Part shown: piece after piece, positions 1,197 to 22,200 of the stretch | How positions within the stretch are numbered: position 1 is the first letter of the stretch | How the letters are laid out: every line of letters begins with the position of its first letter | Source: Methanothrix sp. | GTDB lineage: Archaea; Halobacteriota; Methanosarcinia; Methanotrichales; Methanotrichaceae | NCBI GenBank assembly: GCA_040770465.1 | Contig: JAXGJB010000024.1 | Location: 1-39,971 of the forward strand | Direction of reading: 5' to 3' | Length of the DNA: 39,971 bases | Made by a program: the position numbers and the translations under genes | The notes under the pieces: generated by a model | Told to the model about the DNA's origin: nothing | Database searches by the model: none | What the model saw: only the letters and a program-made list of their open reading frames with translations

Positions 1197-1827
1197 CGAG
1201 AGGGAGATGTTCTCCGGCCCTCATATAGGCCTTTTCGTATGACTCCCCCAGGAGCCTCCACACCTCCTCGTCGGAGATGATCTCCTCGATAATCCTCTTC
1301 CTCTCCGCCTGGTCAGAAACCCGCTCCTTAATGACACCCCTCATCTCCCCCAAAAGGCAGGCCATCCCGGCGTACCCCTCGTCCAGAACCTCCTCGAACC
1401 GTTCGCGAAGGCGTTTGGAGAGGGCGGGGCTCTCGCCGAAGGTAGATATGGCGACGATTACGGGATCTCTTTTGATCACCGAGGGGACGACCACCTCCCC
1501 GACGCCGTCGACCCTGTTCACCAGAACCCCCATCTCTGCGGCTTTCACTTCCAGGTCGGCGTTCAGGGTCTGACTGCTGGTGGCGGGGATGGCGATGAAG
1601 GCGTCCCGGAGAAGGTCTTCGGCTCCGGAGGGGAGACCGACCTCGACCAGCTCGACGGCACCCTCCTCCGCCATCTTATGAAGGCCGGGGGTGAACTCGA
1701 GGCTTGCCACCGTCACCCTGGCATATTGAGAGAAGAGCCGCGCCTTCCTCTCGCCGACCGCCCCGCCGCCGAAGATTACCACCTTTCTCCCGGAGAGATC
1801 CAGTAGGAGGGGGAGGTGGCTCTTCAG
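1138..1827 (-). CDS. sirC: Precorrin-2 dehydrogenase (SirC / CysG N-terminal type); probable CTG start at 1827
   Basis: LPLLLDLSGRKVVIFGGGAVGERK Rossmann motif, VNRVD, IVAISTFGESPALSKRLR. The ORF-track N-terminal extension to 1926 lies inside ahbB. The 3' end overlaps hemA by 59 nt. Confidence 0.88.
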   Translation of the reverse strand: MKSHLPLLLDLSGRKVVIFGGGAVGERKARLFSQYARVTVASLEFTPGLHKMAEEGAVELVEVGLPSGAEDLLRDAFIAIPATSSQTLNADLEVKAAEMGVLVNRVDGVGEVVVPSVIKRDPVIVAISTFGESPALSKRLRERFEEVLDEGYAGMACLLGEMRGVIKERVSDQAERKRIIEEIISDEEVWRLLGESYEKAYMRAGEHLPLDERDSLDAGDPPEGEDRRD

Positions 1828-2294
1828 ATCCTTGCCCCCGTCTTCTTGAACTCCCTCTCGCTGAATAGGACCTGGTAGTCGGATATCCCCACTTTTCGGG
1901 ATATCTCGGCGGCTACCCTCCGGCACTCCTCCCGTGAGGGGGAGTGGACGACGGTATAGAGGTTGAAGGGCCAGCTCGGCCTTGAGGGGCGCTCGTAGCA
2001 GTGGGTGACCTCGTTGAAGGAGGCCATGATGGGTCCGACCCGCTCGACGTCATCCGGCGGGACGCGCCAGACGATCATGGCGTTGGCGACGATCCCAAGA
2101 GCCCTGTGGCCTATGGTGGCAGAAAACCTCCTGATCACCTCCACCTCCAGAAGGGCCGCGAGCCTCTCTATCACTTCGTCCTCTCCGATGGAGAGCCTTG
2201 TGCCCAACGCCCCGTAGGGCCTGGCGGTGAGAGAAATCCCCTCCTGGGCGGCCCTGATGAGGGCGAGGTCCAGATCGTCTATCTCCCCGGTCGT
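1824..2294 (-). CDS. ahbB: Siroheme decarboxylase beta subunit (AhbB/NirH, Lrp/AsnC-like); start uncertain
   Basis: HRALGIVANAMIVWRV, VTHCYERPSRPSWPFNLYTVVH and EFKKTG motifs. The frame continues upstream of the TTG at 2207 as EIDDLDLALIRAAQEGISLTARPYGAL (HTH), up to an ACG at 2294 behind GGAGGTGA. Confidence 0.85.
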   Translation of the reverse strand, partial: TTGEIDDLDLALIRAAQEGISLTARPYGALGTRLSIGEDEVIERLAALLEVEVIRRFSATIGHRALGIVANAMIVWRVPPDDVERVGPIMASFNEVTHCYERPSRPSWPFNLYTVVHSPSREECRRVAAEISRKVGISDYQVLFSEREFKKTGARI

Positions 2295-2340
2295 CTCATC
2301 ACCTCCTTAAATTCGCTCCCATTTTTCGGTCCGTTAAAAT

Positions 2341-4647
2341 TCACTTCCATCCGTCGGGGTCGCCGAAGGGGTACCGGTCCGTCCCCTTCGTCGGGACCGA
2401 TTTTGGATCGGACCCCGGATTCCCCTCGACCGCATGGTCGCTCCAGTAGTTTCCGCCGACCTCTGGGCCGGCATCCCACTCGTTGTTGCCGTTGTCGACG
2501 GCGTTCTGAGGCAGCATCAGGTTTCCGTTGTCGACGAAGTTGTTGTGATACACTCTCCACCCGCTAGAGTCGATGAGGCTCGCACCGCCCAGACCGTTTT
2601 GGATGAAGGAGTTTCCAGTGACCTTCCCGTCCCGTGAGAAGCTGATCCTGAGGCCGTACCGGCTGTTTCGGGTCAGTTTGTTCCCCTCGATCTTCGCCCC
2701 CTCGACGGACTGGAGGAAGAGCCCGTCCCCGTTATCCGCGGCGATGTTTCCTGCGATCGTCGGCTCCGAGAGCTGGTCCATGGCGAGGCCCGACTCCTCG
2801 TTTCCGGAAAGATTGCATCTGATCACCATAGCCCCGTCACAGCCCGAGGCGCTGATCCCCTGACGGTTATCAGCAGCCCGGTTCATGTTCAGAAGGCAGT
2901 TCGGAGATCTCGTCAGCCTGACCCCATCCTCTTTGTTCCGTCTCGCCTCGGACTGGAGGATTGAGCAGGATGAGGAGTTTGTGAGGCGTATCCCGGCCAG
3001 CCCCTCCGAGGCGTTCGACCCCTTCACCGTCGTCGCCGCCGAGTCCCGTACCTCAAAGCCCGCCTCAGAAGACCCCCGGGAAGTGCAGCCGACTAGATCG
3101 TCGCCGGTGCCCGCCTGGACCGAGAAGCCGACGGTGCAGTTTTTGGCCCTGCTCCCCTCGACCCTGCAGTCTCTGGTCAAAAGCATCCGCACGCCGACCT
3201 CGTCTCCTGAGAGGGTGAGGTTCTGGGCTGCGCAGCCCGCAGAGTTGACGATGAGGGCTCCCGCGCTGTTGTTGGAGAGGACGAGGTCTTTTGCGGTGAC
3301 GTTATCGCAGCCCACCAGGGCTAGAAAGCCGCATTCTCCCGAAACCAGGAGGTCTCGCCCGTCAGTTATGTAGCAGAAGGGCTTCTCGTCGATGGTGTTG
3401 GACGAATCGGCGTCCTGGCGGAAGGGGCCGTCGTCCGGGTAGGATGGGTCCTCCCCGTCCACCCTGACGGCTTGGTGGTTGAGATCGAACCGGTTTGCCC
3501 TGAGAACGTTCTGCCCCGATCCGAGGATCGACAGCCCCAGGTCGTTTCGAAGGAACTGGTTCTCTATGATGGAGTTTCCGGCGGAACCCGACTTCAGCGT
3601 CAGACCTCCGCCGTTCTCGACGAAGAGGTTTCCGGAGATCTCGTTATTCTCCGACCCCTCCAGCAGGATCCCGTCAGCCTCGTTTCCGTCCAGGCGGTTT
3701 TGGCCCACCAGGTCGTCGGTCGAGTCCTTCAGCCTGATTCCGATGTTGCATCCCATCACTGAATTATTGACCGCCGAGCTGTTATTCGAGCCGTGGAGGA
3801 GGATGGCAGCGATCCCCGCCCCCGAGACGACGTTATCGAGGATCTCGCCATCTTCCGACCCAGAGATGACGATCCCCATCTCCGTTGATGAGAGGTTGTT
3901 TCCTACGATGAAACTACCGTCGGAGTTTGTGATCTCGATCCCCCTCCTGGTGATGAAGCCGGTGTCGTTGACGGCGCATCCGCTGGAGTCTGAGATCAGC
4001 GCGCCGGTGTCCCCCGAGATTGTGCAGTTGGAGATGACAGACCCTGGAGACCCCACCGCTTCCACACCCAGGGTGGACCTGATCTCTGTCCCCCTGACGG
4101 CGCAGCCTGATCCGTTCTGGAGCCGAACTCCGACGGAGCACCCCTCGATCGCCGATTCGAGGACCTGGTTGTTGGAAGAGGCTGAAAGAACCCCCGTCGA
4201 AAAGTCCCTTATGGCGCAGCCCTGGATGGTGTTTCCGGAAGATTTCAGCTCGATGCCGGTTCCCTCTCCGGTGCCCCCTCCAGAGCCCCTGATCTCAAGG
4301 CCGGTGACGGCAAAGCCGGACGCCACCACCACAAACCCTCCCTCGAGGGTCACAGAGCCCTGGTCGCTGGCGATGGAGATCGGCAGCCGGATGGGGATCG
4401 CCCCCTCTCTGTAGTATCCGGGACGGACCAGGATCTCATCGCCGGTCTTTGCAGCGTTGACGGCCTTACCTATCGTCGAATAATCCCCGCTCCCGCTCTG
4501 GTCGACGACCAGCGTCTCGGCCTGGGCCCCCATGAGGAAGACGCCGAATAGAAAGAGCAGGATCAAGATCCAGAACTTCTCCGTAACGATACCCCCAATC
4601 CAGTACGGAATTCCTTTCTTATGGGGGATAGATAATTCTATCCCCAC
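2341..4647 (-). CDS. Secreted parallel beta-helix (NosD/pectin-lyase-like repeat) cell-surface protein
   Basis: Hydrophobic signal ending GAQA, TLVVDQSGSGDYSTIGKAVNAAKTGDEILVRPGYY N-terminal motif, many GIxLxxSxxNxIxxN repeats, C-terminal GGNYWSD...DRYP typical of methanogen NosD-family proteins. Confidence 0.85.
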   Translation of the reverse strand: MGIELSIPHKKGIPYWIGGIVTEKFWILILLFLFGVFLMGAQAETLVVDQSGSGDYSTIGKAVNAAKTGDEILVRPGYYREGAIPIRLPISIASDQGSVTLEGGFVVVASGFAVTGLEIRGSGGGTGEGTGIELKSSGNTIQGCAIRDFSTGVLSASSNNQVLESAIEGCSVGVRLQNGSGCAVRGTEIRSTLGVEAVGSPGSVISNCTISGDTGALISDSSGCAVNDTGFITRRGIEITNSDGSFIVGNNLSSTEMGIVISGSEDGEILDNVVSGAGIAAILLHGSNNSSAVNNSVMGCNIGIRLKDSTDDLVGQNRLDGNEADGILLEGSENNEISGNLFVENGGGLTLKSGSAGNSIIENQFLRNDLGLSILGSGQNVLRANRFDLNHQAVRVDGEDPSYPDDGPFRQDADSSNTIDEKPFCYITDGRDLLVSGECGFLALVGCDNVTAKDLVLSNNSAGALIVNSAGCAAQNLTLSGDEVGVRMLLTRDCRVEGSRAKNCTVGFSVQAGTGDDLVGCTSRGSSEAGFEVRDSAATTVKGSNASEGLAGIRLTNSSSCSILQSEARRNKEDGVRLTRSPNCLLNMNRAADNRQGISASGCDGAMVIRCNLSGNEESGLAMDQLSEPTIAGNIAADNGDGLFLQSVEGAKIEGNKLTRNSRYGLRISFSRDGKVTGNSFIQNGLGGASLIDSSGWRVYHNNFVDNGNLMLPQNAVDNGNNEWDAGPEVGGNYWSDHAVEGNPGSDPKSVPTKGTDRYPFGDPDGWK

Positions 4648-4754
4648 CGCTCAGGAAATCAGCTCTGCCAATCCTTCCTCATTTTGACGAACGGGAAGAT
4701 ACTAATCGGAGTAGATCGATAAAATTGCGAGATGATATCGATTGGTGAGCCGGG

Positions 4755-6053
4755 ATGACCGAACCTTACCGCATCCTGATCGTCGAGGACGACCCCAACG
4801 ACGTCGAGCTGATCCTCCTCGGCTTCTCGAAGCACGACGAGTTCTTCGTCGACGTCGCCTCCACCGGGGAGGAGGGGCTACAGATGGCCTCAGGAACCCG
4901 CTACGACCTGGTCTCGGTGGACTATGCCCTTCCCGGAATGAGCGGCATCGACGTCCTGGAGGAGATCCGAAAGGCAGACCAGGACGTCCCCGTGGTCATG
5001 GTCACGGGGCGCGGGACCGAGGAGCTGCAGGTGGTGGCCTTCGAGAAGGCGGCGACGAGCTACGTCATGAAGAGCGTCGACAGCTTCCGGAGCCTCCCCA
5101 CCATCTTCGAGGCGCTGATCAGCGAATCGAGGTTCAGGTCCCAGGAGCGCCGGATGAAGAGAGAGATGGAACGGTCCGAGGCGGTGAGCAGATCCATCCT
5201 GGAGAACTCGCCGACGGGGATCTACGTCCTCCAGAACGGCTGCTTCAAGATGGTCAACTCCAAGTTCGCGGAGATCTTCGGCTGCGACAAGGAAGATCTA
5301 ATCGGCGAGCACTTCTGGAGCCTGGCAGAGCCCGAGAGCTTCGAGTGCGTAAACGTCGTTGAAGAGGAGGCAGACCTCGAAGTCGAGGAGAGTCCCGGCA
5401 AAGATGAAGGCTCCGAAGGGCCGATCTTCAACGAGTTCTGGATCACCAGGAGGGACGGATCGAAACGGTGGGTCGAGGCGAGGATCGCGCCTCTGGACTA
5501 CCAGGAAGAGAGGTGGGTCCTCGGAAATCTTGTGGACGTCACCGAGAGGAAGGAGGGGGAGATGGAGCTTTTGACGGAGAAGAGGAGGCTTTTGGTCCTA
5601 CACTCCCTCGCCCTGAAGGCGATCGATTTTAGAGGGGAGACCGACGACCTCTTGAAAGAGGCCCTCTCCGAGCTCTTGGCCGGGCCTGAAGGTTTCGAGG
5701 TGGGGGGCGTCTTCCTCCTCGAAGGGGGCCGGCTGGTCCTCCGGGGCCTCTCAGGACCCCTCGAATATCTGATGAGCTTTCTAGACCAGGTCGACCCCGA
5801 GGGGCTCTTGGACGGGGCCAGAGCGAATAAAGCGATCGATTTTAGCAGACCTATCTTCTGGGCTTCGGCGCCCTTCTCTTGCGGCGATGGGAGCCGGGGG
5901 GTTCTGATTCTGGGGCGGGAGAGGGAGATCGAGCCGGATCTTCTAGAGTTCGTAAAAGAGCTAGCCCAGCACTTCGGGAAGATGGTGGAGGTCTTCGAGC
6001 GATTGAGGGCAGCCACCGAGATCGGCGAAAAGAAGTTCGAAGATCAAGACTAG
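4755..6053 (+). CDS. Response regulator: receiver + PAS + degenerate GAF-like domain
   Basis: RILIVEDD, LVSVDYALPGMSGIDVL (phospho-Asp), VVMVTG, YVMK; PAS motifs ILENSPTGIY...VNSKFAEIFG and TRRDGSKRWVE...DVTERK. No H-box or HATPase domain seen. Confidence 0.85.
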   Translation: MTEPYRILIVEDDPNDVELILLGFSKHDEFFVDVASTGEEGLQMASGTRYDLVSVDYALPGMSGIDVLEEIRKADQDVPVVMVTGRGTEELQVVAFEKAATSYVMKSVDSFRSLPTIFEALISESRFRSQERRMKREMERSEAVSRSILENSPTGIYVLQNGCFKMVNSKFAEIFGCDKEDLIGEHFWSLAEPESFECVNVVEEEADLEVEESPGKDEGSEGPIFNEFWITRRDGSKRWVEARIAPLDYQEERWVLGNLVDVTERKEGEMELLTEKRRLLVLHSLALKAIDFRGETDDLLKEALSELLAGPEGFEVGGVFLLEGGRLVLRGLSGPLEYLMSFLDQVDPEGLLDGARANKAIDFSRPIFWASAPFSCGDGSRGVLILGREREIEPDLLEFVKELAQHFGKMVEVFERLRAATEIGEKKFEDQD

Positions 6054-6658
6054 AGCCGTCTCCAGATGAGGAGGATCCTCTGGAAGGCGGTGATGTGGCT
6101 TGCCGCGGTGATGAGGACGACGGCCCACCCCAGGATCGAGAGGGTCGCCAGATCCGATGGGAAGAGGGCGGTGGCGACGGTGGCGGCTAAGATGAGGACC
6201 AGCCGGTCGGCCCGCCCCATGATCCCGCCGTAGAGGCGGCCAAGCCTCAAGGCTTGGGCCTGGGTCCCCAGGTAGCTTGTGAGGAGGACCCCCATGACGG
6301 CGAAGATCCCCACCGCCTCCGAGACGTAGCCCGCAAAGACGATCCCGGCCAGGATCGCCATGTCGGCGTACCGATCGATGACGTGATCGAGGAAGTCGCC
6401 TTTCGCCTCGGCCTGTCCCGTCATCCGGGCGAGGGTGCCGTCGACGGCGTCGAAGACGGCGTTCAAGAGGACCATCAGGGCTGCCAGGTAGAGGAGGGAT
6501 GAGTCCGCTGCCGATAGATAGTAGAACCCCCCCGCGGCGAGGGCGAAGATCATGGACAGGATGGAGATTAGGTTGGGGGACGCTCCGGCCGCCATCGCCA
6601 CCGCCGCCAGGGGCTCGGTCACCGCCAGCGACTTCGATCTCAGGTCATCGAGGGTCAA
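6050..6658 (-). CDS. CDP-alcohol phosphatidyltransferase (archaetidylinositol-phosphate synthase-like)
   Basis: SPNLIS and DAVDGTLARMTG...GDFLDHVIDRYAD signature; multiple TM segments. Confidence 0.9.
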   Translation of the reverse strand: MTLDDLRSKSLAVTEPLAAVAMAAGASPNLISILSMIFALAAGGFYYLSAADSSLLYLAALMVLLNAVFDAVDGTLARMTGQAEAKGDFLDHVIDRYADMAILAGIVFAGYVSEAVGIFAVMGVLLTSYLGTQAQALRLGRLYGGIMGRADRLVLILAATVATALFPSDLATLSILGWAVVLITAASHITAFQRILLIWRRL

Positions 6659-7169
6659 ACTCCATCTCTCCAGTCCAGTCTATATCTCCAGGCAATAGAT
6701 CGATCTCCCGCCGCAGTATCTTCGCCACCAGGTCGGCCGACTCCTGAGGCGAACGCCCGGTGGTGTCGATCTCGCTCACCCGGTCGCACCACTCGGCCGC
6801 CTCCACCAGGATGACGTCCAGGAATTCCGCCTCCAGGTTCTCCCGGATCTTCTTCTCGGTGTAGCCCCGCAGGGCGAGCCGCTCTCTGAGGACTTTTGGG
6901 CGTGTCCGGAGGACGATCGCCTCGGTGGCGAAGTGGTGGGAGAAGTGCCCTTCCAGGACGACGATCTCGTCGTCCTCCTCGGGGGCCAGATCCTCCAGCC
7001 TCTCGGCCAGGGCGTCGACGTCGGCTACCAGGCAGCCCCGATCCTCATCTCTGCCCAGGGAAAGCCCCTCGTCCCTGACGACGGCGTTTAGGTCGATGAC
7101 CCTGAAGGGGAGGAGGCCAGCGACCGCCGTCTTCCCGGTTCCGGGGGTCCCGGTCAGAGCGATCCGCAT
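6645..7169 (-). CDS. Archaeal AK6/Fap7-type adenylate kinase
   Basis: RIALTGTPGTGKT P-loop, LEGHFSH (hhhhEGH motif), RGYTEKKIRENLEAE. Confidence 0.9.
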   Translation of the reverse strand: MRIALTGTPGTGKTAVAGLLPFRVIDLNAVVRDEGLSLGRDEDRGCLVADVDALAERLEDLAPEEDDEIVVLEGHFSHHFATEAIVLRTRPKVLRERLALRGYTEKKIRENLEAEFLDVILVEAAEWCDRVSEIDTTGRSPQESADLVAKILRREIDLLPGDIDWTGEMEFDPR

Positions 7170-8218
7170 ACATCACCGTAGGCTTCGAGGAACCGGTCGT
7201 TCTCCTCAGGGGTTCCCACCGTCACCCTGACGGCGTGATCGCCTGCCCCGCGGAAGGAGAAGCAGTCCCGGATGATGACCCCCTTTCTGAGCAACCGTTC
7301 TGCGAGCTTCCCCGAGGGCTCGTCGGTCTCCAGGTAGAGGAAGTTTCCTCCCGAGGGCCGGAATGCTGGGATCGCCTCCCTCAGCCGGTCCCTCTCCTCC
7401 CGGATGGCCTTCACCGACCTTCTCATGTGCTCGATGTCGCCCAAAGCCGCGATCCCCGCCGCCACCGATGGCGTTGTGACGCCGAAGAAGGGAGGGGCCG
7501 CCCTCCTGTACTCCTTTGCGATCCAGTCGGGGGCGACTGCGTAGCCGAGCCTCATCCCGGCGAGGCCGAAGGCCTTCGAGGTCGTCCTTCCCACCACCAG
7601 GTTCTCGTACTCGGCCGCCATGGCGAGGAAGTTCTGGTCGCTGAACTCGGCGTAGGCCTCGTCGAGGAAGACGATGCCCTCGGTCGTCTCGACGATCGAT
7701 CGGAGGTCGTCCTCAGCTATCAGGTCGCCGGTGGGGTTGTTCGGCGAGCAGATGAAGACGATCTTCACCCCCTTCGGCAAATCCGTCGGCACCTCGAAGC
7801 TCTCACCCCGCCGGACGAAGATCGGGTCGGCTCCGGCCGTCACCGTCAGGATCTCGTAGTAGCTGAAGGTGGGGGTGTAGATGAGGGTTCTGTCGCCGGG
7901 GTCGAGGAATAGGCGGGTTAAGGTGTCCATGACGCCGTCCATCCCCGCCCCGATGAGGACGTTCTCCGGCCCCGTCCCGGCGTAATCCGCCAGGGCGTCG
8001 ATGAGCCGCTCGGGCTCGGGGTACCTCTCGGGCCGGACCGAACCGATCGCCTCGAAGACCTTCGGACTGGGACCGTAGGGGTTCTCGTTACTCCCAAGCT
8101 TAACGATCTCGTCGGGCAAAAGGCCGTACTTTGCCGCGATCTCACTGATCCCCTTGCCGGCGACGTAGGGCTTCAGCCGCCCCAGGCAGGCTCTAAGGTT
8201 TCTGGAGTATCTCTGCAA
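7154..8218 (-). CDS. hisC: Histidinol-phosphate aminotransferase
   Basis: KLGSNENPYG, CSPNNPTG, DEAYAEF, RTTSKAFGLAGMRLGY (PLP lysine), VRVTVGTPEEN. Confidence 0.88.
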   Translation of the reverse strand: MQRYSRNLRACLGRLKPYVAGKGISEIAAKYGLLPDEIVKLGSNENPYGPSPKVFEAIGSVRPERYPEPERLIDALADYAGTGPENVLIGAGMDGVMDTLTRLFLDPGDRTLIYTPTFSYYEILTVTAGADPIFVRRGESFEVPTDLPKGVKIVFICSPNNPTGDLIAEDDLRSIVETTEGIVFLDEAYAEFSDQNFLAMAAEYENLVVGRTTSKAFGLAGMRLGYAVAPDWIAKEYRRAAPPFFGVTTPSVAAGIAALGDIEHMRRSVKAIREERDRLREAIPAFRPSGGNFLYLETDEPSGKLAERLLRKGVIIRDCFSFRGAGDHAVRVTVGTPEENDRFLEAYGDVCGSL

Positions 8219-9407
8219 GCACCTTCACCACGCGGTCGATCTCCTCAGTTCCCACCACCAGGGGCGGGACCATCCTCAGTACGTGGTCGCTTGTGGCGTT
8301 GAGGAGGACGCCCCGCTCCCGAGCCTGGTTTACGATCTCGGGGCAGTTTGCCGCAAGCTCGACGCCGACCATCAGCCCCAGGCCCCTGACGTCCAAAGCG
8401 TCGATCTCCTCTGAAAGCCGGGACCGCAGGTACGCGCCCATCTTCTCCGAACGCTCCACGAGCTTCTCGCTTTTGATCGCCCCGATGGAGGCGAGGGCCG
8501 CCGCCGAGACCAACGGGCCGCCGCCGAAGGTGGAGGCGTGGTCGCCCTTCTGGAAGACGTCGGAGACCGACTCTGCCGCCATCATCGCGCCCATGGGGAG
8601 GCCGCCGGCGATCCCCTTGGCGAGGGTCATGACGTCGGGCATCACCCCGCTGTGCTCTTTTCCAAACCATCTGCCCGTTCGGCCGAAGCCGGTCTGAACC
8701 TCGTCGAGCACGAGCAGAGCGCCGCAGTCGTCGCAGATCTGGCGGGCCGCCCTCAGGTACTCGGGCTTGGGGACGTTGACGCCGCCCTCGCCCTGGACCG
8801 GCTCCAGTATGACGGCCGAGGTCTCTTTCGAGACCGCCGCAGCCAGCGACTCGGGGTCGTCGTAGGGAACGAACTTCGCCTCGTTGAGGGGACGGAAAGG
8901 CTCCCTGTACATCAGCTTGTAGGTCGCTCCCAACGACCCCAGGGTTCTTCCGTGGAAGGAGTGGACGGCGGCGACGATCTCCGACCTAGCCGTCGCCCGA
9001 CGGGCGAGCTTCAGGGCGGCCTCGACGCTCTCAGCACCGGAGTTGCAGAAGAAGGCTCTATCCATCCCGGTGAGGGTCTTCAGCTCCTCGGCGAGGAAGA
9101 CCTGGTTTTCGGTGTAGTAGAGGTTCGAGGTGTGGATCAATTCCTTCGCCTGCCGAGCGATCGCCTCGACGACGGCGGGGTGGCAGTGGCCTACGGTGTT
9201 GACGGCGACCCCGGCGACGAAGTCGATGTACTCCTTTCCTGCGGCGTCCCAGACCCGGGCCCCAGCTCCACGAACCAGGAGGATAGGCTGGCGGGTGTAG
9301 GTCTGGATCACCGACTCCCGCTCCAGCTCCACGATCCGGGCGGTCCTATCATTGCCCGAGAGATCGGATTCGGATCCGGACATTTTTGTCTCCATTTTCA
9401 TTTTCAT
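8193..9407 (-). CDS. argD: Acetylornithine aminotransferase (class III PLP); exact start among several ATGs uncertain
   Basis: YIDFVAGVAVNTVGHCHP, FFCNSGAESVEAALKLAR, SFHGRTLG, LEPVQGEGGV, DEVQTGFGRTG, TLAKGIAGG, HASTFGG. Confidence 0.92.
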   Translation of the reverse strand: MKMKMETKMSGSESDLSGNDRTARIVELERESVIQTYTRQPILLVRGAGARVWDAAGKEYIDFVAGVAVNTVGHCHPAVVEAIARQAKELIHTSNLYYTENQVFLAEELKTLTGMDRAFFCNSGAESVEAALKLARRATARSEIVAAVHSFHGRTLGSLGATYKLMYREPFRPLNEAKFVPYDDPESLAAAVSKETSAVILEPVQGEGGVNVPKPEYLRAARQICDDCGALLVLDEVQTGFGRTGRWFGKEHSGVMPDVMTLAKGIAGGLPMGAMMAAESVSDVFQKGDHASTFGGGPLVSAAALASIGAIKSEKLVERSEKMGAYLRSRLSEEIDALDVRGLGLMVGVELAANCPEIVNQARERGVLLNATSDHVLRMVPPLVVGTEEIDRVVKVLAEILQKP

Positions 9408-13205: not shown

Positions 13206-13223
13206 ATCCCTCGATACGGGGCT

Positions 13224-14029: not shown

Positions 14030-14530
14030 ATGTCCAAGTCAGAAGATTGCCTCAATGAGGCCTTCGCCGGGGAGTCTCAGGCAAACCGAAAGTACCTCGC
14101 CTTCGCCGAGAAGGCGGACCAGGAGGGCTACCCACAGGCTGCAAGGCTCTTTCGCGCCGCAGCCGAGGCCGAGACGGTCCATGCCATGAATCATCTGAAA
14201 GCGATGAAAGCCGTCAAATCCACCAAAGAGAACCTGAGGGAGGCGATCGCGGGAGAGACCCAGGAGTTCAAGGAGATGTACCCGACGATGATCGACGCCG
14301 CCAAAGCCGAAGGGGACAAGGCCGCAGAGAGGAGCTTCCGATACGCCAAAGACGTAGAGGAGATCCACGCCGGCCTCTACCACGATATGATGGAGAACCT
14401 GGAGGCGAAGAAGGACGAGATCTACCCATATTACGTCTGTCCGGTCTGCGGCATGACCGCAGAGAGGGAGCCGCCGGAGAAGTGCCCGGTCTGTGGGGTC
14501 AAGGGGGAGAAGTTCAAGAGGGTAGACTGA
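14030..14530 (+). CDS. Rubrerythrin
   Basis: AFAGESQANRKY, EAETVHA, GETQE, VEEIHA diiron motifs; C-terminal rubredoxin-like CPVCG...CPVCG. Confidence 0.95.
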   Translation: MSKSEDCLNEAFAGESQANRKYLAFAEKADQEGYPQAARLFRAAAEAETVHAMNHLKAMKAVKSTKENLREAIAGETQEFKEMYPTMIDAAKAEGDKAAERSFRYAKDVEEIHAGLYHDMMENLEAKKDEIYPYYVCPVCGMTAEREPPEKCPVCGVKGEKFKRVD

Positions 14531-14566
14531 AAAACGAGGCGCCGAAGCCGAATGGGGCCTTCAAGA

Positions 14567-15535
14567 TCAGAGACCGGATAGGTGGCGATCGAGCATCTCT
14601 AAGAGCCGCCAGGAGAGGAGGATCTGGGCCATCCCAGTGGAGCTGACGCGATCGTCTCCGGACCGGTCGCAGATCGGCGATGTCGAACCCGAGAGGCTGC
14701 AGAGCTTCTCTTCGAGCCCCTCGATCATGGTCCGATGAAGCTCGCCGTCGACGGTCAGAACGCTCACCGGTTTGCCGTAGTAGTCGTCCCGCTGAAAGGA
14801 GATGGAGAACTCGCTCTCGGCGAGCCGGAACAGGGAGGACAGGTCGATGGTGAGGTCCACCTCCGAAGGAGAGGCCTCCATCACCTCCTGGATCAGCCTC
14901 ACCGAGTACCTTTCGGGGGGCGTCTCCATATCGAAGGGCGGAGGAAGCCTCGAGTCCTCGATCTTGACGACGGCGTCGGCGTAGATCTTCTGGACGTCGA
15001 CGTAGAGCTTGTAGTCCGGCTCCCGCTCAAGAATCTCTTTTTTTACCGCTTCTCTTTCATAATGCCGGTCGACGCAGTCCCTCTTGATCTTCCACCGCCT
15101 CTTGACGGCTCGGCTTGGGTCGACGAAGATCTTGAAGTCCGTCTCGCGCTGGAGATCAGGGGTGTAGAAGGGATGAAGCCCCTCGATGATCAGGACCGGC
15201 GCCGACCTGAAGGGGACCGGCCCTTTAATCGTTCCATTGGAGTGGTCGTAGACGGGCTTTTTGATCTCCTCCCCCCTCCGCAAGGACCCGAGGTGCTCGG
15301 CCAGGAGGTCGAGGTGGTTTGCCTCCGGGTTCAGGGGGGTTATCCTCCGTACCCACCTCTCCTGGCGGTCTAGGCTGTGGTAGTCGTCCAAGCTGAAGGT
15401 GGAGATGAGGTCGTCTCCGAGGAGCCTTCTGATCCCCCGGGATAGAGTCGTTTTGCCCGAACCGCTGTCTCCTGCCACCGCCACCACGAAGACCCGACCC
15501 GACGACCTCAGCCGATCTTGCAGGCTGGCCGTCAC
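14567..15535 (-). CDS. prk: Phosphoribulokinase (archaeal PRK/uridine kinase family)
   Basis: VAGDSGSGKTT, LDDYHSLDR, ITPLNPEAN, KPVYDHSNG, IEGLHP, KIKRD, YVDVQK: PRK motifs. Confidence 0.82.
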   Translation of the reverse strand: MTASLQDRLRSSGRVFVVAVAGDSGSGKTTLSRGIRRLLGDDLISTFSLDDYHSLDRQERWVRRITPLNPEANHLDLLAEHLGSLRRGEEIKKPVYDHSNGTIKGPVPFRSAPVLIIEGLHPFYTPDLQRETDFKIFVDPSRAVKRRWKIKRDCVDRHYEREAVKKEILEREPDYKLYVDVQKIYADAVVKIEDSRLPPPFDMETPPERYSVRLIQEVMEASPSEVDLTIDLSSLFRLAESEFSISFQRDDYYGKPVSVLTVDGELHRTMIEGLEEKLCSLSGSTSPICDRSGDDRVSSTGMAQILLSWRLLEMLDRHLSGL

Positions 15536-15605
15536 AAAGATCTCCCCGGCGAAAAAGTCCTCAGGGAAAAAGTCCTCTGCGACCGAGAATAGGTTAGAGT
15601 GCAGA

Positions 15606-16535
15606 TCATCGGTCCTGCTTCTCCGACATCAGGTCTGCAAACTCGCTGGTCTTGTCGATGCTCTCCAGCTCCCGGCTCTCGATGACCGCCGTCTCCTCGA
15701 CCCTCTCGACCTTCGTCTCGCCGTCGACGATCACCGCCGAGAAGGTCCTGGTGACGATCGAGAGGCTGCTCATCAGCCTCGCCTTCTTGAGCAAAGTCGA
15801 TGAGAACTTCCCGAGGCCTGTGAGGACCACCATATCCTCCTTCTGGGTGATGGCGTTGAAAGGGGACTGGGCTGTGGGGAAGACGTCGAAGCCGATCGAG
15901 GCGAGGTGTCGAAGAACCTTGTCATCGATCGTCTCCACCTCTTCTGCTACAGGTTTTTTGGGATCCAGGATCTCGACGGGCTTTATCAGCTCCTGGCCGA
16001 AGAGCTCCTCAAGCCTGAGGGCGACGTCGATGGTGGTATCCATGCTCTCGATCTCGTACTTGCTGACCGTCCGACGAGAGACGGACAGCTCCGAGGCGAG
16101 GGCGCCGAGGGATATGCCGCTCTCAAGCCGGAGCTTTCTCAAGAGATGGCCGTCGATCTTGACGTAGAGCCCCCCGTGGGCGGCATAGACCAGGGGTGGG
16201 ACGTCGTCGACGATCCAGTCTGAGAGGGTGGTGAAGCTGACGGTGGGAACCCCGTACCTGAAGTAGACGACGCCGCCCTCGAGGCCGTGGTCCCTCGTCT
16301 TCTCACCGATAAGAAGGGGGTTTCCAGAAAGGTATTTAGCCAGGCGGCGAATCTCCACCGCGGTCTTCTCATTGAGACCGTCGATGTTTGAGAGGATCTT
16401 GAGAATAAGGAGGACGCCGCCTCGCCTCGCCGCCAGATCGAAACTTCTCGGCCTCACGTAACACCGGTCGGAGACGGAAAAGCCCGACCTCACCAGGAGA
16501 CCTGAGACCCGATCGGTCAGAAACTCCTTATTCAT
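15606..16535 (-). CDS. Archaeal HTH (XRE-like) transcriptional regulator, conserved neighbour of tiaS
   Basis: SFDLAARR...LKILSNID N-terminal domain, AHGGLYVKIDG, LGALASELSVSRRTVSKYE helix-turn-helix. Confidence 0.85.
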   Translation of the reverse strand: MNKEFLTDRVSGLLVRSGFSVSDRCYVRPRSFDLAARRGGVLLILKILSNIDGLNEKTAVEIRRLAKYLSGNPLLIGEKTRDHGLEGGVVYFRYGVPTVSFTTLSDWIVDDVPPLVYAAHGGLYVKIDGHLLRKLRLESGISLGALASELSVSRRTVSKYEIESMDTTIDVALRLEELFGQELIKPVEILDPKKPVAEEVETIDDKVLRHLASIGFDVFPTAQSPFNAITQKEDMVVLTGLGKFSSTLLKKARLMSSLSIVTRTFSAVIVDGETKVERVEETAVIESRELESIDKTSEFADLMSEKQDR

Positions 16536-16579
16536 CGTTATATATGTTTGGGCTCAGCCGTTATTTAAGGTTCACCATC

Positions 16580-17839
16580 ATGATCACCATAGGCGTAGAC
16601 GATACCGATTCAGAAGAGGGGCTCTGCACCACCTACCTCGCGGCGGTGATGATGGAGAAGCTCAAACGCCTCGGCGAGATCAGAGGCCTCCCAAAGCTTG
16701 TGAGGCTCAACCCATGCGTCCAGTTCAAGACCCGGGGTAACGCAGCCATCGCCTTCTCCCTGGAGACAAAACGGCCTATCGAGGCGGAAGAGGTCGCCCT
16801 GGAGACCCTGATGGAGCTATCCGACTTCTCGGGCCCCAAGACCAACCCCGGCCTGGTGGTGGCAGAAGAAGAGGTGCCGGCGGAGCTTTCAACCTTCTAC
16901 AGAAGGGCCCTATCCGAGGTTTTGGAGGTGAAAGAGGCCGAAGAGATCATCGAAAAGTACGGACTCTGGTCCCGTTCATTCAAAAACGGGCAGGGGCTCA
17001 TCGGGGCCCTTGCGGCGATCGGGGCCGAGTTTCCGGACTGCACATACGAGCTTCTCGCCTATCGGCGGCCCGAACGGTGGGGCACCCCCCGGGAGATCGA
17101 CGAGGAGTCGGTCTGGATGGCAGACGAACTTACCTACCCCGGAACCTGGGACACCGTCGACCACCACAACAGAAAGGTGGTCTTCGCCCCCCACTCAAAA
17201 GACCCCGTCCTCTTCGGGATCCGGGGCGAGGACCCGGAGCCACTCCGGTCGGCTCTGAAGACGATCAGGTCTGAGCCTCCCGAGAGGATCGTCATCTACA
17301 GGACAAACCAGGGGACGGACGCCCACATCAACCGCAGCGAGATCGACGGCGTCGCCGAGGACAGAAGCTACCGCCTCCGGGGCGTGGTGGCGAAAGAGGC
17401 AGAGGCGATCGAAGGGGGGCACCTCTTCTTCCCCCTGGCCTCTGAAGACGGAAAGGGCGCCATCGACTGCGCCGCCTTCGAGCCGACGAAGAACTTCCGG
17501 GATCGAGTTAGGGCCCTTGTCCCCGGAGATACCATCGAGGTCTACGGAGCCGTCAAGAAGAGGACCCTCAACATCGAGAAGATGGAGGTCGTCCGCCTGG
17601 CCGAGAGAAAGGCCCAGACGGCGCCCCTCTGCCCCTCCTGCGGACGGCGGATGAAGTCGGCGGGGCGGGGGCAGGGTTATCGGTGCAGGAGATGTGGCAC
17701 CAAAGCCGAGGGGAAGGTGTTGGCCGCGATCCCGCGAGAGATCGAAGAGGGGTTCTACGAAGTTCCGCCCTGCGCCAGAAGGCACCTCTCAAAACCCCTG
17801 GTCAGGATGATGGGCAGAAAGGTCCATCCGAGCAGGTAG
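16580..17839 (+). CDS. tiaS: tRNA(Ile2) 2-agmatinylcytidine synthetase
   Basis: IGVDDTDS...CTTY, LVRLNPCVQFKTRGN, GLIGALAAIG, PVLFGIRG, TNQGTDAH, OB fold, CPSCG...CRRC zinc ribbon, RRHLSKPL. The ATG at 16580 follows an AT-rich TATA-like stretch. Confidence 0.95.
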   Translation: MITIGVDDTDSEEGLCTTYLAAVMMEKLKRLGEIRGLPKLVRLNPCVQFKTRGNAAIAFSLETKRPIEAEEVALETLMELSDFSGPKTNPGLVVAEEEVPAELSTFYRRALSEVLEVKEAEEIIEKYGLWSRSFKNGQGLIGALAAIGAEFPDCTYELLAYRRPERWGTPREIDEESVWMADELTYPGTWDTVDHHNRKVVFAPHSKDPVLFGIRGEDPEPLRSALKTIRSEPPERIVIYRTNQGTDAHINRSEIDGVAEDRSYRLRGVVAKEAEAIEGGHLFFPLASEDGKGAIDCAAFEPTKNFRDRVRALVPGDTIEVYGAVKKRTLNIEKMEVVRLAERKAQTAPLCPSCGRRMKSAGRGQGYRCRRCGTKAEGKVLAAIPREIEEGFYEVPPCARRHLSKPLVRMMGRKVHPSR

Positions 17840-17867
17840 AAAATATAAAAATAGAAGAAGGCCGCCC

Positions 17868-18797
17868 TCACTTGAAGGCCGCTTCCAGCGGGGGGATGAC
17901 CTGCTTCTTCCTCGATAGGACGCCCTTCTTGTAGATGGAGCTGTTCTCGATCTTCCCATCGAAGGCCTTCTCGAACTTATCGACCGGGGTTCCCACGAAG
18001 AGGAGATCGCTCGCCTCCTTCATGACGTCGGTGAGCATGATCAGAACGAAGCTGAGACCCTCATCCTTCCGCACCTTCTCCATCTCGTCCAGGATCTCCT
18101 TCCTCCTGGGCGCGAGGACCGAGAGGTCCATGACCTCGATCTGGCCGACGCCGGCCTTCGTCCCTGCGAAGTCGAAGTGCTTGTAGTCGCCCTTGACGAT
18201 ATCCAGGGCCGTCTTCGTGGATATGTCGCTCTTGGCGGTGAGCATCGCAATCCCGTACGCCTCGTAGTCCTCGCCGATGATCTTGGCGAGCTTTGCCACC
18301 TGCTCCTTGTCCTTCTCGGTGCAGGTTGGGGACTTGAATAGGACGGTGTCGCTCAGGATCGCAGAGATCATCACGCCCGCCATCTCCTTGGTGATGGGGA
18401 CCTTGTACTGATCGTACATCGCCGAGATGATCGTCGCGGTGCTTCCGACGGGCTCGTTGTGGAAGAAGATGGGGCTTGCTGTCTGGACGTCGCCGATCTT
18501 GTGGTGATCTATGACCTCCATAAGGGTCGCCTCCTTGATGTTGTCCACCGCCTGGGCGACCTCGTTGTGATCGACGAGGACGATCTTCTTACCCTTGCCG
18601 TCGGTGATCGTCTCCGGCACCGGGACGCCGAAGTGATCGAGGACGAACTTGGTCTCGCTGTTGATCGTTCCTGCCGCCGCCGGGACGTATATTTCCGGCA
18701 GGTTCAGCTTGTTTTTCAGGTTCGCGTAGGAAATAGCCGCAGCTACTGAGTCAGTGTCTGGACTTTTGTGGCCAACCACGTAGACGTTATCAGCCAG
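17868..18797 (-). CDS. ppaC: Manganese-dependent (family II, DHH) inorganic pyrophosphatase; probable CTG start at 18797
   Basis: GHKSPDTDS, LVDHNE, IDHH, PVGSTATI, ILSDTVLFKSPT, SRKKQVIP. The track's GTG (18806) is part of the SD GGAGGTG. Confidence 0.93.
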   Translation of the reverse strand: MADNVYVVGHKSPDTDSVAAAISYANLKNKLNLPEIYVPAAAGTINSETKFVLDHFGVPVPETITDGKGKKIVLVDHNEVAQAVDNIKEATLMEVIDHHKIGDVQTASPIFFHNEPVGSTATIISAMYDQYKVPITKEMAGVMISAILSDTVLFKSPTCTEKDKEQVAKLAKIIGEDYEAYGIAMLTAKSDISTKTALDIVKGDYKHFDFAGTKAGVGQIEVMDLSVLAPRRKEILDEMEKVRKDEGLSFVLIMLTDVMKEASDLLFVGTPVDKFEKAFDGKIENSSIYKKGVLSRKKQVIPPLEAAFK

Positions 18798-18920
18798 ATG
18801 AAACACCTCCGAAGATAATCAACGCGCGACTTCGACTTAAACCTTTGCTACGCGGCGTTTATGGCCGAAATTATATTTGGATCCAGCCGGCAAGATGGGA
18901 CGAAACGATGCTGACAGGCA

Positions 18921-18930
18921 TATTTATATA
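18921..18930 (+). promoter_or_regulatory. TATA box for the putative ncRNA
   Basis: TATTTATATA about 22-30 nt upstream of the first hairpin stem. Confidence 0.6.
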
Positions 18931-18951
18931 GTACTTCGCTTATGGAGTGAA

Positions 18952-19195
18952 GGTTCCCTTCAGAGGACTGGCAGGAGCCCAGGCATCCGCCGTCGCCGTG
19001 ACTGCCGGCGCAAAGGGGGAACGACACGAAAAGCCGCGTTGATAGGTCCTTGGGGGAGATAATGACTATCGTCTGCCCATGACCTCAAGACAACCCAGAT
19101 GCGGTACATATAAGCCCGCTGCGAGGGTCACTGAGCCGACTGCGGATAGTCCAGAGGATGAGGCTTCAGAGTTAGCAGAGCATCGGGCGACATAC
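18952..19195 (+). ncRNA. Putative three-hairpin box H/ACA guide sRNA
   Basis: Three stem-loops, each followed by G-ACA (19024, 19090, 19190); hairpins 1 and 3 have an internal pocket and a GA/GA K-turn; upstream TATA; no credible ORF. Confidence 0.65.
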
Positions 19196-19301
19196 CAACA
19201 TCATCCGAACTGTTAATATCAATTTCTACATATATTAGTCGTTCCGCTCGTTTCTTCCATTGGCTTAAATATCAGCAGCTCTTGATCGTGGTCTGCAGAC
19301 T

Positions 19302-20000
19302 ATGAGGGGAATTCTGATCACCTTCGAGGGCATCGACGGGAGCGGGAAGTCTACGATCGTCTCCGAGGTCGCCCGAACCATCGCCGAAGATGGAAAGCCA
19401 CCATTCGCGGGAAGACGTTTTTTCTTCACCGCCGAGCCGACCGACGGCGAAGAGGGACGGCTATTGAGAGAGAGGCTCAAGATGGACTCAGCAGCGGAAG
19501 GGCTAGGGCCGAGGTCTATGGAGGCGGAGAAGATGGAAGAGCTCTTCTTATTCATGGCCGACCACGCCCGCCACCTGGCAGAGACGGTGATCCCATCCCT
19601 CGAAGAGGGTATGGTTGTGATCTCAGACCGATACTCCGACTCACGGGTCGCCTACCAGGGGGCCACCCTGCGCGAAGTCGTGCCCCACCCCCTGGAGCTG
19701 GTGAGAGAGATCCATCGTCCATGGAGCGTCCATCCCGACAAGACGATACTATTTTCGATAGATCCGGCCGTGGCGGTGGAGAGGTGCCTTTTGAGGCATG
19801 AAGAGGAGGCGATATCCATGACGGCGAAAGCCCCGGAGAAGTTCGAGCGGGAGGAGTTCCTCCGAATGGTATCAGAGAATTTCGAGATGATGACGAAGCA
19901 GGAGCCCGAGAGGTTCGTCATCATCGACGCCGCCCGAGAAAAGAAGGAGGTTCTGGCAGAGACCATGGAGTCCCTGGCCAAGATCCTCGAAGACGTCTGA
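19302..20000 (+). CDS. tmk: Thymidylate (dTMP) kinase
   Basis: ITFEGIDGSGKST, LFLFMADHARH, VISDRYSDSRVAYQG, FEREEFL. Confidence 0.95.
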   Translation: MRGILITFEGIDGSGKSTIVSEVARTIAEDGKPPFAGRRFFFTAEPTDGEEGRLLRERLKMDSAAEGLGPRSMEAEKMEELFLFMADHARHLAETVIPSLEEGMVVISDRYSDSRVAYQGATLREVVPHPLELVREIHRPWSVHPDKTILFSIDPAVAVERCLLRHEEEAISMTAKAPEKFEREEFLRMVSENFEMMTKQEPERFVIIDAAREKKEVLAETMESLAKILEDV

Positions 20001-20059
20001 AGACCCCGACGAGATGCGAGCAGCAAGGTTGATTCAACCCGGATTTCGAGCCGGCGCGA

Positions 20060-20752
20060 CTAATCGGAAAGAACAACCGGATCGTTCAGGGCCATCGCCA
20101 CCAGCCTTCGAGCCCATCTGAGCTTCATCTTCTTTTTCGGCGTGACGTCGGGATCATCGTAATCGAAGCCTATGATCCTGATATTTCTGGCTCCGAACCG
20201 TCGGGCGAGAAAAACGGCCCGATCCCCGTCGGAGAAGCCGCCGAAGTTGTAGACCCCTTCGATCGGCTCGGACTGGGTGGTGCCGAGGACTTTTGTGAGC
20301 TGTGGGACGTACTCATTGAGGGCCGCCATGTTGTCTCCGTGGGCGTGGACCACCACCGCCGAGCCCCCGGCATTGGCGGCGAGGATGTCGGGGAGAAAGC
20401 CGTCAAGATCGGTGACTATGACGTCCGGAAGAAGACCCGCCACGAGGACCGCCGTAGTCGCCCCGTCGGCTGCCACGATGACCATATCGTCGGGCTTCGC
20501 CCACCGAGGCGGCTCCGATGATTTGCAGCCCGCGAGGATCGACTCCAGACCTTGCGGAAGGCTCGGCCCGTTCCCACAGACGAGGACCTCGCGCCCTCGG
20601 ATCATCGGGTCGATATCCTCGATGGAGAGATCTCCCACCCGGCCCGATAAGAGGCTCTGGAGGAGCCGGGCCGCCTCCTCGTCCGCCTTTCTGGTGAAGC
20701 AAAACTCCGCCAGGATCTCCTCGTAGATCGGCTCCCAGTCCGAAAACCGCAT
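20060..20752 (-). CDS. mptE: 6-hydroxymethyl-7,8-dihydropterin pyrophosphokinase (methanopterin pathway)
   Basis: WEPIYEEIL, VCGNGPSL, AADGAT, PDVIVTDLDG, VHAHGDN, NFGGFSDGDRAVFLA, KKMKLRWA. Confidence 0.9.
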   Translation of the reverse strand: MRFSDWEPIYEEILAEFCFTRKADEEAARLLQSLLSGRVGDLSIEDIDPMIRGREVLVCGNGPSLPQGLESILAGCKSSEPPRWAKPDDMVIVAADGATTAVLVAGLLPDVIVTDLDGFLPDILAANAGGSAVVVHAHGDNMAALNEYVPQLTKVLGTTQSEPIEGVYNFGGFSDGDRAVFLARRFGARNIRIIGFDYDDPDVTPKKKMKLRWARRLVAMALNDPVVLSD

Positions 20753-20903
20753 GTTACGCCATCGGCCTATCTAAATTAAGCCTTTTCGGAGTGATATGGT
20801 GGGACACGATTGCGATGGGAGCAAAAAGACCGGTCATCATTAAGAGGACGTTGGAGAAGATGATCGAATAAAAAGAAGAAAAGAGTGGGGAAGACTTTCC
20901 CCA

Positions 20904-21941
20904 TCAGTTCCCGCAGCACCCGCCGGTTGTTGCAGGTATATCGTTGTATATATCGCTGTAGATGGCACCCGCCGTGCTCTTAGTCGCGTTGGACATGGTC
21001 ATGCCCATGCAATCGTAATTGCAGGGGTTGTAGTAAGGCCCATAGTCGCACGGGTCGCCACATCCGAGGATGCAGCAGGTGAGCCAGTCCTTCGGCGCAG
21101 ATTCTTTCTTGTAGGGCACGTCGATGCTCATGTTCTTCTCGATGTGGAAGGTTCCGACGTAGTGCTCATCGATCTCGATCATGGGATTCACCCAGGCGGA
21201 GGTGGCCCTCTTGCCTGTGTATGTACTGTTGGGATCCATGGAGTTCGGCTCTCCCTGGAGGACTCCGATGTCAACCATACCATCGGTGATGTCCTCATTG
21301 ATCTTCATGGATGTGTACCCGACTCCCTGATAGACCGGATCTTCGTATATGTATCGCTTGTCCTTGACTATGACGTCAATCTCCTTGTCGATCGCCTTCG
21401 CGTACTCCACCTGGTGGTGCATCATGGTGGCAGGCTTGTAGTTCTTGATGACGGTCTTCTCCTTCAGGAGGGAGTTGTAGACGATCGGGTTTCTGGCATA
21501 GTAGCCGTTCCCGTAGGTCATGGCCATTGGGGAGTAGACCATGGAGTTGTCCTCCCTCGCAGAGATGCAGGAGTATGCCTCACACTCTCTGAAGCAGCCC
21601 ACTGGCCGGGAGTAATCGATCTCCTCAGCGCAGATGGTGATCTCGTTGTCTATGGTGCCGCTCCCGTGGGCGTAATCCTTGTACATCGGCCCTTTCGCAT
21701 TGGTGTCCGGCGAATCGAGCTGGATGTACCTGTAGGTCATGAAGTAGCCGCTGCCCTGGACGCTCTGGTCGAAGTCGAAGGTGATATTATTAGATGTTGT
21801 CCCCGTACCGCAAAGATGTTTTCCATAACAATCGTACGTGACCGTACAAGACGAATCCGAACACGGCTCACAATTTGGCCCTGCTGACGCCATCCCCATC
21901 AGGAACGACAGGGCGAGTATAGCAAGTGTAACTTTTTTCAG
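20904..21941 (-). CDS. Secreted Cys-rich hypothetical protein; probable CTG start at 21941
   Basis: Extending the 331-aa ORF by 14 codons gives (M)KKVTLAILALSFLMGMASA, a classic signal peptide behind GGAGGGAG. Host-like codon usage; Cys clusters at both ends. Confidence 0.8.
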   Translation of the reverse strand: MKKVTLAILALSFLMGMASAGPNCEPCSDSSCTVTYDCYGKHLCGTGTTSNNITFDFDQSVQGSGYFMTYRYIQLDSPDTNAKGPMYKDYAHGSGTIDNEITICAEEIDYSRPVGCFRECEAYSCISAREDNSMVYSPMAMTYGNGYYARNPIVYNSLLKEKTVIKNYKPATMMHHQVEYAKAIDKEIDVIVKDKRYIYEDPVYQGVGYTSMKINEDITDGMVDIGVLQGEPNSMDPNSTYTGKRATSAWVNPMIEIDEHYVGTFHIEKNMSIDVPYKKESAPKDWLTCCILGCGDPCDYGPYYNPCNYDCMGMTMSNATKSTAGAIYSDIYNDIPATTGGCCGN

Positions 21942-22200
21942 ATCACTCCCTCCGTCTAAACTAAGTTCGGTAGAGACTTACATAAATCTAACGCCACCCA
22001 CCTATTTTAATCTGTTGATTGCATGAGATATTGAGCTTATGGACCAACTCCGGATTTCCAAGCATTAAGAGATATTTTGATGAAAAAAGCGATTATCGGA
22101 TATTTTGGAAGAAAAAAAATGGATTTTGGATTTGATAGTCCCAAAAAATGGAATAAAATAGAGAATAATGCCCCCCATAGGCGAAATTGCCTTCTAAGCA

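Follow-up and report, generated by a model that had tools for sequence, protein, structure and literature searches.

The stretch of DNA analysed here (hereafter the window) is a contig of 39,971 nucleotides (JAXGJB010000024.1, positions 1 to 39,971 of the forward strand) from the assembly GCA_040770465.1 of the methanogenic archaeon Methanothrix sp. Four of its genes concern us: the adjacent pair sirC and ahbB, the pyrophosphatase gene ppaC, and a gene for a secreted cysteine-rich protein (Table 1). An earlier note on this DNA had claimed that sirC, ppaC and the secreted-protein gene begin at CTG codons 6-7 nt behind motifs resembling a Shine-Dalgarno (SD) sequence, and that CUG initiation is routine in the organism. 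When the window sequence was re-read the three CTG sites were borne out as written, all on the minus strand, and the gene names held, since sirC, ppaC and ahbB all match NCBIfam families above cut-off. Comparison with relatives argues that the three CTGs, and an ACG at the head of ahbB, are probably working near-cognate initiation codons, and that such starts recur at low frequency in the genome.

The source genome has 57% G+C, 2.54 Mb and 66 contigs, and its relatives were sought in 40 genomes, 24 of the same family and 16 outside it. Genera are numbered g1 (that of the source organism), g2 and so on, and loci and genomes carry the prefixes L and G.

Table 1. Coordinates of the genes and proposed initiation signals (window positions, except for aIF1)
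Feature	Position	Strand	Basis or remark
sirC (precorrin-2 dehydrogenase / siroheme synthase N-terminal domain)	1138..1827	-	229 aa from CTG; TIGR01470, PF13241
sirC CTG, proposed start, CTGA overlap with ahbB stop	1827-1825	-	15 loci compared
GGGGG, SD-like run	1839-1835	-	7 nt ahead of sirC CTG, inside ahbB coding sequence
ahbB (siroheme decarboxylase beta), read from ACG 2294-2292	1824..2294	-	NF040707, genus comparison
ahbB extended SD AGGAGGTGAT	2298..2307	-	GGAGG ends 7 nt ahead of ACG; in-frame TAA 2309-2307
ppaC (manganese-dependent inorganic pyrophosphatase, family II)	17868..18797	-	309 aa from CTG; NF003877
ppaC CTG, proposed start	18797-18795	-	ortholog comparison, NF003877 alignment
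ppaC SD GGAGGTG	18804..18810	-	holds in-frame rival GTG 18806-18804
Secreted cysteine-rich protein	20904..21941	-	345 aa, signal peptide (M)KKVTLAILALSFLMGMASA; no family match
Secreted-protein CTG, proposed start	21941-21939	-	21 orthologues compared
Secreted-protein SD GGAGGG	21953-21948	-	6 nt ahead of CTG
aIF1	G000:C16:30677-30895		compared in L219-L248

Orthologous start sites

At ppaC the layout is as the note had described it: GGAGGT (18810-18805), seven nucleotides, then CTG at 18797. The protein read from this codon, with the predicted N-terminus (M)ADNVYVVGHK, scores 391.5 bits against NF003877 (cut-off 283), positions 3-307 of the 308 in the profile aligning with its residues 4-309. 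The start region could be read in 26 aligned loci from the search of the relatives. CTG occupies the start in 16 of the 16 loci belonging to genera g1 (the source and 14 others) and g6, all of which share GGAGGTGTTT(CAT/TAC)CTG; the family's seven remaining genera have TTG (6) or ATG (1) at this position, with GAGGTG ahead of it. The SD motif of the source gene includes an in-frame GTG, three codons upstream of the CTG, which would add just three residues. The corresponding GTG is unusable in two relatives, being followed in frame by TGA in L018 and lying out of frame in L021, and the alignments therefore indicate that the ancestral start of ppaC is the codon now read as CTG. The CTG start has already been annotated in four NCBI records, which begin MADNVYVVGHK; the public proteins of this ppaC clade bear the labels Methanothrix harundinacea or Methanocrinis.

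The gene for the secreted protein provides the widest comparison. Its product matched nothing in scans of Pfam and NCBIfam, yet relatives of it turned up throughout the family, in all 24 of the other genomes, and in none of the 16 from outside. The 22 orthologous loci include a broken one, L075, which was excluded. At the shared site behind GGAGGG, and at the same distance from it, the remaining 21 have CTG (10), TTG (10) or ATG (1), and GGAGGGAGTGAT is kept in 11 of the 13 intact orthologues of the genus, the variants being in L069 and L071. The CTG start occurs also in g2, g3, g5 and g10. A maximum-likelihood tree needs four changes of start codon, at least three of which are forced by its starred branches, and one CTG clade takes in four genera, its end branches being 0.6-0.8 changes per site long. 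All 21 orthologues nonetheless have an open frame of 311-346 residues that begins with an N-terminus rich in K/R and continues into a hydrophobic signal peptide; frame and signal peptide having stayed intact over such long divergence, the CTG is therefore unlikely to be a dead start. In the window the frame is closed by a TAA 12 codons upstream of the CTG, and no canonical start occurs before ATG 21899, by which point the hydrophobic core of the signal peptide has been passed. The claims of a GGAGGG six nucleotides before the CTG and of a signal peptide otherwise lost both stand. The source genome (G000) also encodes paralogues of this protein (C38:16949-17755, C28:9923-10699 and C51:8614-9339), and there are several such paralogues per genome.

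The sirC and ahbB genes form a same-strand pair in which the TG of the sirC CTG supplies the first two bases of the stop codon TGA (1826-1824) of the upstream ORF (open reading frame), giving a four-nucleotide CTGA overlap at 1827-1824. TIGR01470 matches sirC at 125.8 bits (cut-off 62.3) over residues 5-203, on profile positions 1-199 of 205, and PF13241 spans residues 7-115; the N-terminus predicted from the CTG is (M)KSHLPLLLDLSGR. The junction reads GATCTGA in 15 loci, 14 of the genus including the source and one of g6, all with the same NTGA stop/start overlap; they carry AGGATCTGA, and the next codon is ATG in four of them. The resemblance to the usual ATGA coupling that had been proposed for this junction holds, for in L053, of the sister genus g7, ATGA (...ATATGA...) stands exactly at the CTGA position. 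A farther canonical codon, GTG 1926, lies 33 codons upstream of the CTG, and in-frame stops intervene between the two in L035, L038 and L042; in L042 the stop is eight codons upstream and no canonical start precedes the conserved LPLLLDL. The GGGGG ahead of the CTG is kept in genus-mates, a conservation that is ambiguous as the run also codes for Thr-Gly-Ala of ahbB. In the congener G001 the sirC sequence (L047, G001:C1:179731-180416) matches as two overlapping pieces, residues 1-66 and 66-229, which points to a frameshift or to an error in the recorded sequence.

A near-cognate codon of another kind heads ahbB. NF040707 matches this gene at 185.5 bits (cut-off 125), residues 12-156 lying on positions 1-146 of a 146-position profile. 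The codon behind the extended SD is ACG in 14 of 15 loci of the genus and ATG in the other, L032; it is ATG also in L053, and in L044 a TAA immediately precedes the ACG. The first canonical start, TTG 2207, is 29 codons in, and its use would drop about profile positions 1-18. From the ACG the predicted N-terminus is (M)TTGEIDDLDLALIR. The starts permitted by NCBI translation table 11 include CTG, ATT, ATC and ATA; to our knowledge ACG is not among them.

The four genes thus have several properties in common. Each has, at the position of its orthologues' canonical start, a codon that differs from ATG by one base; the ATG that the note had proposed to look for at this codon was indeed found in orthologues of ppaC, the secreted protein and sirC, with TTG as well in the first two. 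Each has a signal able to place a ribosome at a working distance: in ppaC, ahbB and the gene for the secreted protein GGAGG ends 7-8 nt short of the start codon, within the 7-9 nt at which SD spacing peaks across the source genome, and in sirC the GGGGG at 7 nt is joined by the stop-start overlap. Finally, in sirC, ahbB and the secreted-protein gene no canonical start yields the N-terminus of the family.

Genome-wide comparison of start codons

As gene set of the source genome we used the 2,373 ORFs called by a rough home-made finder, and compared them with the chromosome of the congener G001, which gave 1,771 orthologue pairs with a median identity of 81.5%. A pair entered the matrix of starts when an SD-led canonical start, and only one, lay close to the boundary of the alignment in one genome and an SD was kept at the aligned codon in the other. 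The codons at these conserved SD-led starts were, for the source genome (n=378), ATG 234, TTG 95, GTG 31, CTG 5, ATA 2, ATC 1, CTT 2 and eight singletons, and for G001 in the reverse comparison (n=382), ATG 234, TTG 99, GTG 31, CTG 6, ATA 3, ATC 2, ACG 1 and six others. The share of TTG in the source genome (25%, against 8% for GTG) is unusual at 57% G+C. The CTG, ATA, ATC and ACG cases, inspected singly, mostly had identical N-terminal residues and no canonical codon close by; for nearly all of the remaining non-canonical codons a canonical start lay 1-5 codons off, indicating a start shift.

Where one genome has TTG, the other has switched to ATG in 16 cases, to GTG in 13 and to CTG in 8, and never to TCG or TTA. 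As CTG is seen and the products of the other two transitions are not, selection keeps the form N-T-G at these positions. Other near-cognate starts are common to both genomes: CTG/CTG in mevalonate kinase, ATC/ATC in a MinD/CfbC-like ATPase, and further pairs of the kinds ACG/ACG, ATA/ATA and ATT/ATT. The essential RFC small subunit has ATC in G000 (C55:2474-3448) and ATA in G001 (C1:1444225-1445187); read from ATC it meets NF001679 from its second residue (residues 2-322 on profile positions 4-318 of 322), and its first canonical start is 17 codons inside. For this gene and mevalonate kinase the starts were compared in the source genome and one congener.

Candidates picked from paired scans of upstream columns were used only after a check against protein profiles. 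In an NCBIfam scan of 16 candidates, residue 2-6 of the protein met profile position 1-8 in 10. The CTG cases supported in this way are HPT (residues 2-182 on positions 2-183 of 184), a TrpB-like enzyme (residues 2-440 on positions 3-440 of 441), mevalonate kinase, phosphatidylserine decarboxylase, YjbQ and a PRK00447-family protein; the ATC cases are the RFC small subunit, the MinD/CfbC-like ATPase and a HAD-IIA hydrolase. To reach the next canonical start in the profile-supported genes one has to go 9-33 codons into the frame. A tungstate-type permease with CTG fits its profile more loosely, residue 13 falling at position 6. Altogether the source genome has 21 candidates (CTG 12, ATC 3, ATT 2, ATA 2, ACG 2), of which 15 are supported twice, independently.

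Near-cognate initiation is thus predicted to be recurrent, CTG making up roughly 1-2% of conserved SD-led starts, and not routine. The broader claim of the earlier note survives in part: the 12 CTG candidates speak for recurrence, and the excess of canonical codons (360 of 378, against five CTGs) speaks against routine use. Of the genome-wide counts of SD-led CTGs, which it had put forward as a check, the paired comparison gave the figures above; simple counting of motifs left CTG level with noise, as described below. The case for more than chance occurrence is made because of the orthologue comparison, not because of motif counts. The ends of BLAST alignments were also tried as N-terminal boundaries and dropped: this approach left 406 and 416 'orphans' in the two genomes, mostly noise, and failed because G000 and G001 are so alike that the alignments run on into 5' leaders.

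Initiation components and RNA coverage

The possibility that the initiator tRNA or aIF1 carries substitutions that explain CTG use, also raised in the earlier note, received little encouragement. The initiator tRNA is standard, with A1:U72 and three G-C pairs in the anticodon stem, and the sole tRNA with a CAG anticodon is an ordinary long-arm tRNA-Leu. The aIF1 proteins of g1 (14 rows of the alignment) do show changes: they read KSELACGG, a K-to-E substitution, and at the beta3-beta4 turn, before IELQGNH, they have a one-residue insertion together with a D-to-G substitution. Those of g6 have two extra residues there, and the 15 other rows read KSK(L/F) or KSRL and lack the insertion. The beta3-beta4 turn corresponds to loop 2 of eIF1, which affects the accuracy of start selection in yeast (PMC6237735). 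The changes are limited to g1 and g6 and so do not track CTG use; any link between the two would be a weak one, because g2, g3, g5 and g10, with standard aIF1, also start the secreted protein at CTG.

The RNA data came from a single study, in the form of four metatranscriptome runs available as assembled contigs; these inform neither on 5' ends, strand or levels nor, where coverage is missing, on expression. Contigs cover ppaC and the secreted-protein gene, reaching in the latter to about 21939-21955, past ATG 21899. No difference between RNA and DNA is listed at 21941, a site spanned, by arithmetic, by one contig (run X4, depth 6.1). A separate contig lies upstream of ppaC, at 19024-19198; it was seen in run X1 only, at a depth of 1105, has three mismatches, one insertion and a loose end at 19198, and may come from a related organism. 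Searches of the ppaC upstream spacer against Rfam and for tRNA found nothing.

Alternative explanations

From homology of the codons with canonical starts, conserved SD motifs, intact frames and signal peptide, and agreement with family N-termini, we conclude, with a probability of about three in four, that the CTGs of sirC, ppaC and the secreted-protein gene, and the ACG of ahbB, are working initiation codons, presumably read by the ordinary initiator Met-tRNA. Several points tell against this conclusion. The 3' end of the 16S rRNA is absent from the assembly, and the anti-SD sequence of the organism is presumed. A scan that counted motifs upstream of first canonical starts gave no excess of CTG with SD (10/623) over CTC (14/924); in such counts five-base SD matches turn up by chance at about 5% of codons and six-base matches at 0.9%, and the 46 hits of a stricter filter (including CTG 6, CGA 5, ATC 4) are suggestive only. 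Paired scans upstream of the first canonical starts of both genomes were uninformative, being swamped by off-frame shadow ORFs, which dominate because the gene finder was home-made. At sirC the overlapping ahbB codons (ATC TGA) partly fix the CTG, so that its invariance is weaker evidence. At ppaC, lastly, GTG 18806 is in frame and separated from the CTG by no stop in all 16 loci of g1 and g6, and 98 of the 120 listed public predictions start there, at (M/V)FHLADNV.

The ppaC observations give substance to the one alternative that keeps an appreciable chance, though clearly the smaller one: that in this genus the start of ppaC has shifted to GTG 18806 (MFHLADNV...), on an mRNA with a very short leader or none, the CTG being an internal leucine codon. 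A conserved TTTAAG box some 30-35 nt upstream of the GTG, read by general promoter rules, makes a 5' end near the GTG conceivable. On the other side, this GTG belongs to the SD motif itself, and, as noted, sister genera cannot start there. The two codons between GTG and CTG differ as amino acids, FH in g1 and FY in g6; the length of NF003877 suits the protein read from CTG, the choice made in the four NCBI records; and the YjbQ gene has the same layout, with an SD bearing an in-frame GTG three codons before a CTG, which in the congener is TTG.

For the other three genes one might suppose that initiation occurs at the next canonical codon downstream, namely ATG 21899 in the secreted-protein gene, a GTG 15 codons past the CTG in sirC, and TTG 2207 in ahbB. 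Such codons exist and are those that standard gene finders pick, but ATG 21899 would leave the secreted protein without the charged and the hydrophobic part of a signal peptide kept in all 21 orthologues, the shortened sirC product would lack profile positions 1-11 (for ahbB, see above), and in both sirC and ahbB the stretch between the CTG or ACG and the downstream codon is conserved as protein. We regard this explanation as improbable.

Still less credible is that the CTGs are start codons lost in decaying or barely expressed genes, or errors of sequence. A single T-to-C change from TTG is just the first step expected in the loss of a start. Against this, the same codons recur in up to 16 independent genomes, frames of the secreted protein remain open at full length across genera, the cases include the essential RFC small subunit and mevalonate kinase, ppaC and the secreted-protein gene are covered by RNA contigs, and TTG, as the tally of switches between the two genomes indicates, changes at its first base only. 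Least probable of all are editing of the mRNA from CUG to UUG, at odds with the unaltered RNA contig at 21941 (in which minority editing would be hidden), and a dedicated CUG-initiating tRNA, against which stand the one CAG-anticodon tRNA, an ordinary tRNA-Leu, and the standard initiator tRNA; nothing in favour of either was found.

Discussion

The favoured explanation, initiation at the near-cognate codons themselves, would work as follows. The initiator Met-tRNA would pair with CUG, or with ACG in ahbB, despite a single mismatch. In ppaC, the secreted-protein gene and ahbB the strong SD 7-8 nt upstream would hold the small ribosomal subunit at the codon; in sirC a ribosome that ends ahbB at UGA may restart on the overlapping CUG, CUGA taking the place of AUGA. 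Most of the CTGs would have arisen from TTG, itself an unusually common start (25% of those led by an SD), by T-to-C transition, and would persist as they still initiate, probably less efficiently.

Starts of this type are rare but of a known kind, and mostly missed by gene finders. In the literature on start codons of Methanothrix and Methanosaeta, the latter represented by titles or abstracts, we found no report of CTG starts. The closest likeness is to Deinococcus, for which N-terminal proteomics placed the starts of dnaA at ATC, rpsL at CTG and infC at ATA (Baudet et al. 2010, PMC2830850): there too conserved housekeeping genes begin at CTG or ATC, the codon is kept among relatives and gene callers misplace the N-termini. 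The Deinococcus starts are bacterial and have peptide support, whereas the present case is archaeal and known from sequence comparison; set beside the genes cited from that report, it includes more genes, an ACG, and frequent exchange between TTG and CTG. In a study of 36 genome triples (Belinky et al. 2017, PMC5622118) UUG made up 2,468 of about 69,000 ancestral starts, and was replaced by AUG 43 times, by GUG 35 times and by CUG once. The NUG starts of bacteria and archaea described there share with ours the tolerance of a first-base mismatch behind an SD and the switching among close relatives; our proportion of TTG (95/378) is about seven times theirs, and our eight TTG/CTG switches stand against 16 to ATG and 13 to GTG, a contrast to be taken as indicative, since the annotations they used rarely allow CTG.

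Coupling of termination to reinitiation at four-nucleotide ATGA overlaps is described for both archaea and bacteria (PMC10666635). sirC resembles these cases in overlapping the ahbB stop by four nucleotides, and in having a standard ATGA in a sister genus, and differs from them in that the codon of restart would be CUG. Eukaryotic near-cognate initiation at CUG and ACG is policed by eIF1, and archaeal aIF1 is reported to discriminate against non-canonical starts (Monestier et al. 2018, PMC6237735); the set of one-mismatch codons is the same as here, but, unlike in the eukaryotic process outlined in that paper, no scanning is involved, an SD or a stop-start overlap placing the ribosome. For Haloferax, near-cognate codons made up about 30% of the putative alternative initiation sites, and these were left aside (PMC7261190).

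A broader view, which we consider rather unlikely as a whole, is that the entire family (Methanothrix/Methanocrinis and relatives) is weak in its inspection of the first base of the start codon, so that UUG provides a quarter of SD-led starts, CUG acts as a heritable fourth NUG, and AUC, AUA, AUU and ACG are tolerated, even in essential genes; weak starts would then set the output of highly transcribed genes such as ppaC, and within the genus the aIF1 insertion might add to the effect.

For annotation the consequences are more immediate. Common gene finders accept only ATG, GTG and TTG, and signal peptides, P-loops and catalytic motifs are cut off as a result, as in the secreted protein, the MinD/CfbC-like ATPase, the HAD hydrolase and HPT. 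The opposite error is the extension of genes into their neighbours, for instance of sirC from GTG 1926, and under table 11 ACG starts such as that of ahbB cannot be annotated at all. The genes named here are concrete candidates for N-terminal proteomics. The organism is a widespread acetate-using methanogen of biogas and wetlands, and the exchange of TTG and CTG among its close relatives amounts to a natural experiment on how far the archaeal ribosome tolerates a mismatch at the first base of the start codon when an SD fixes its position.

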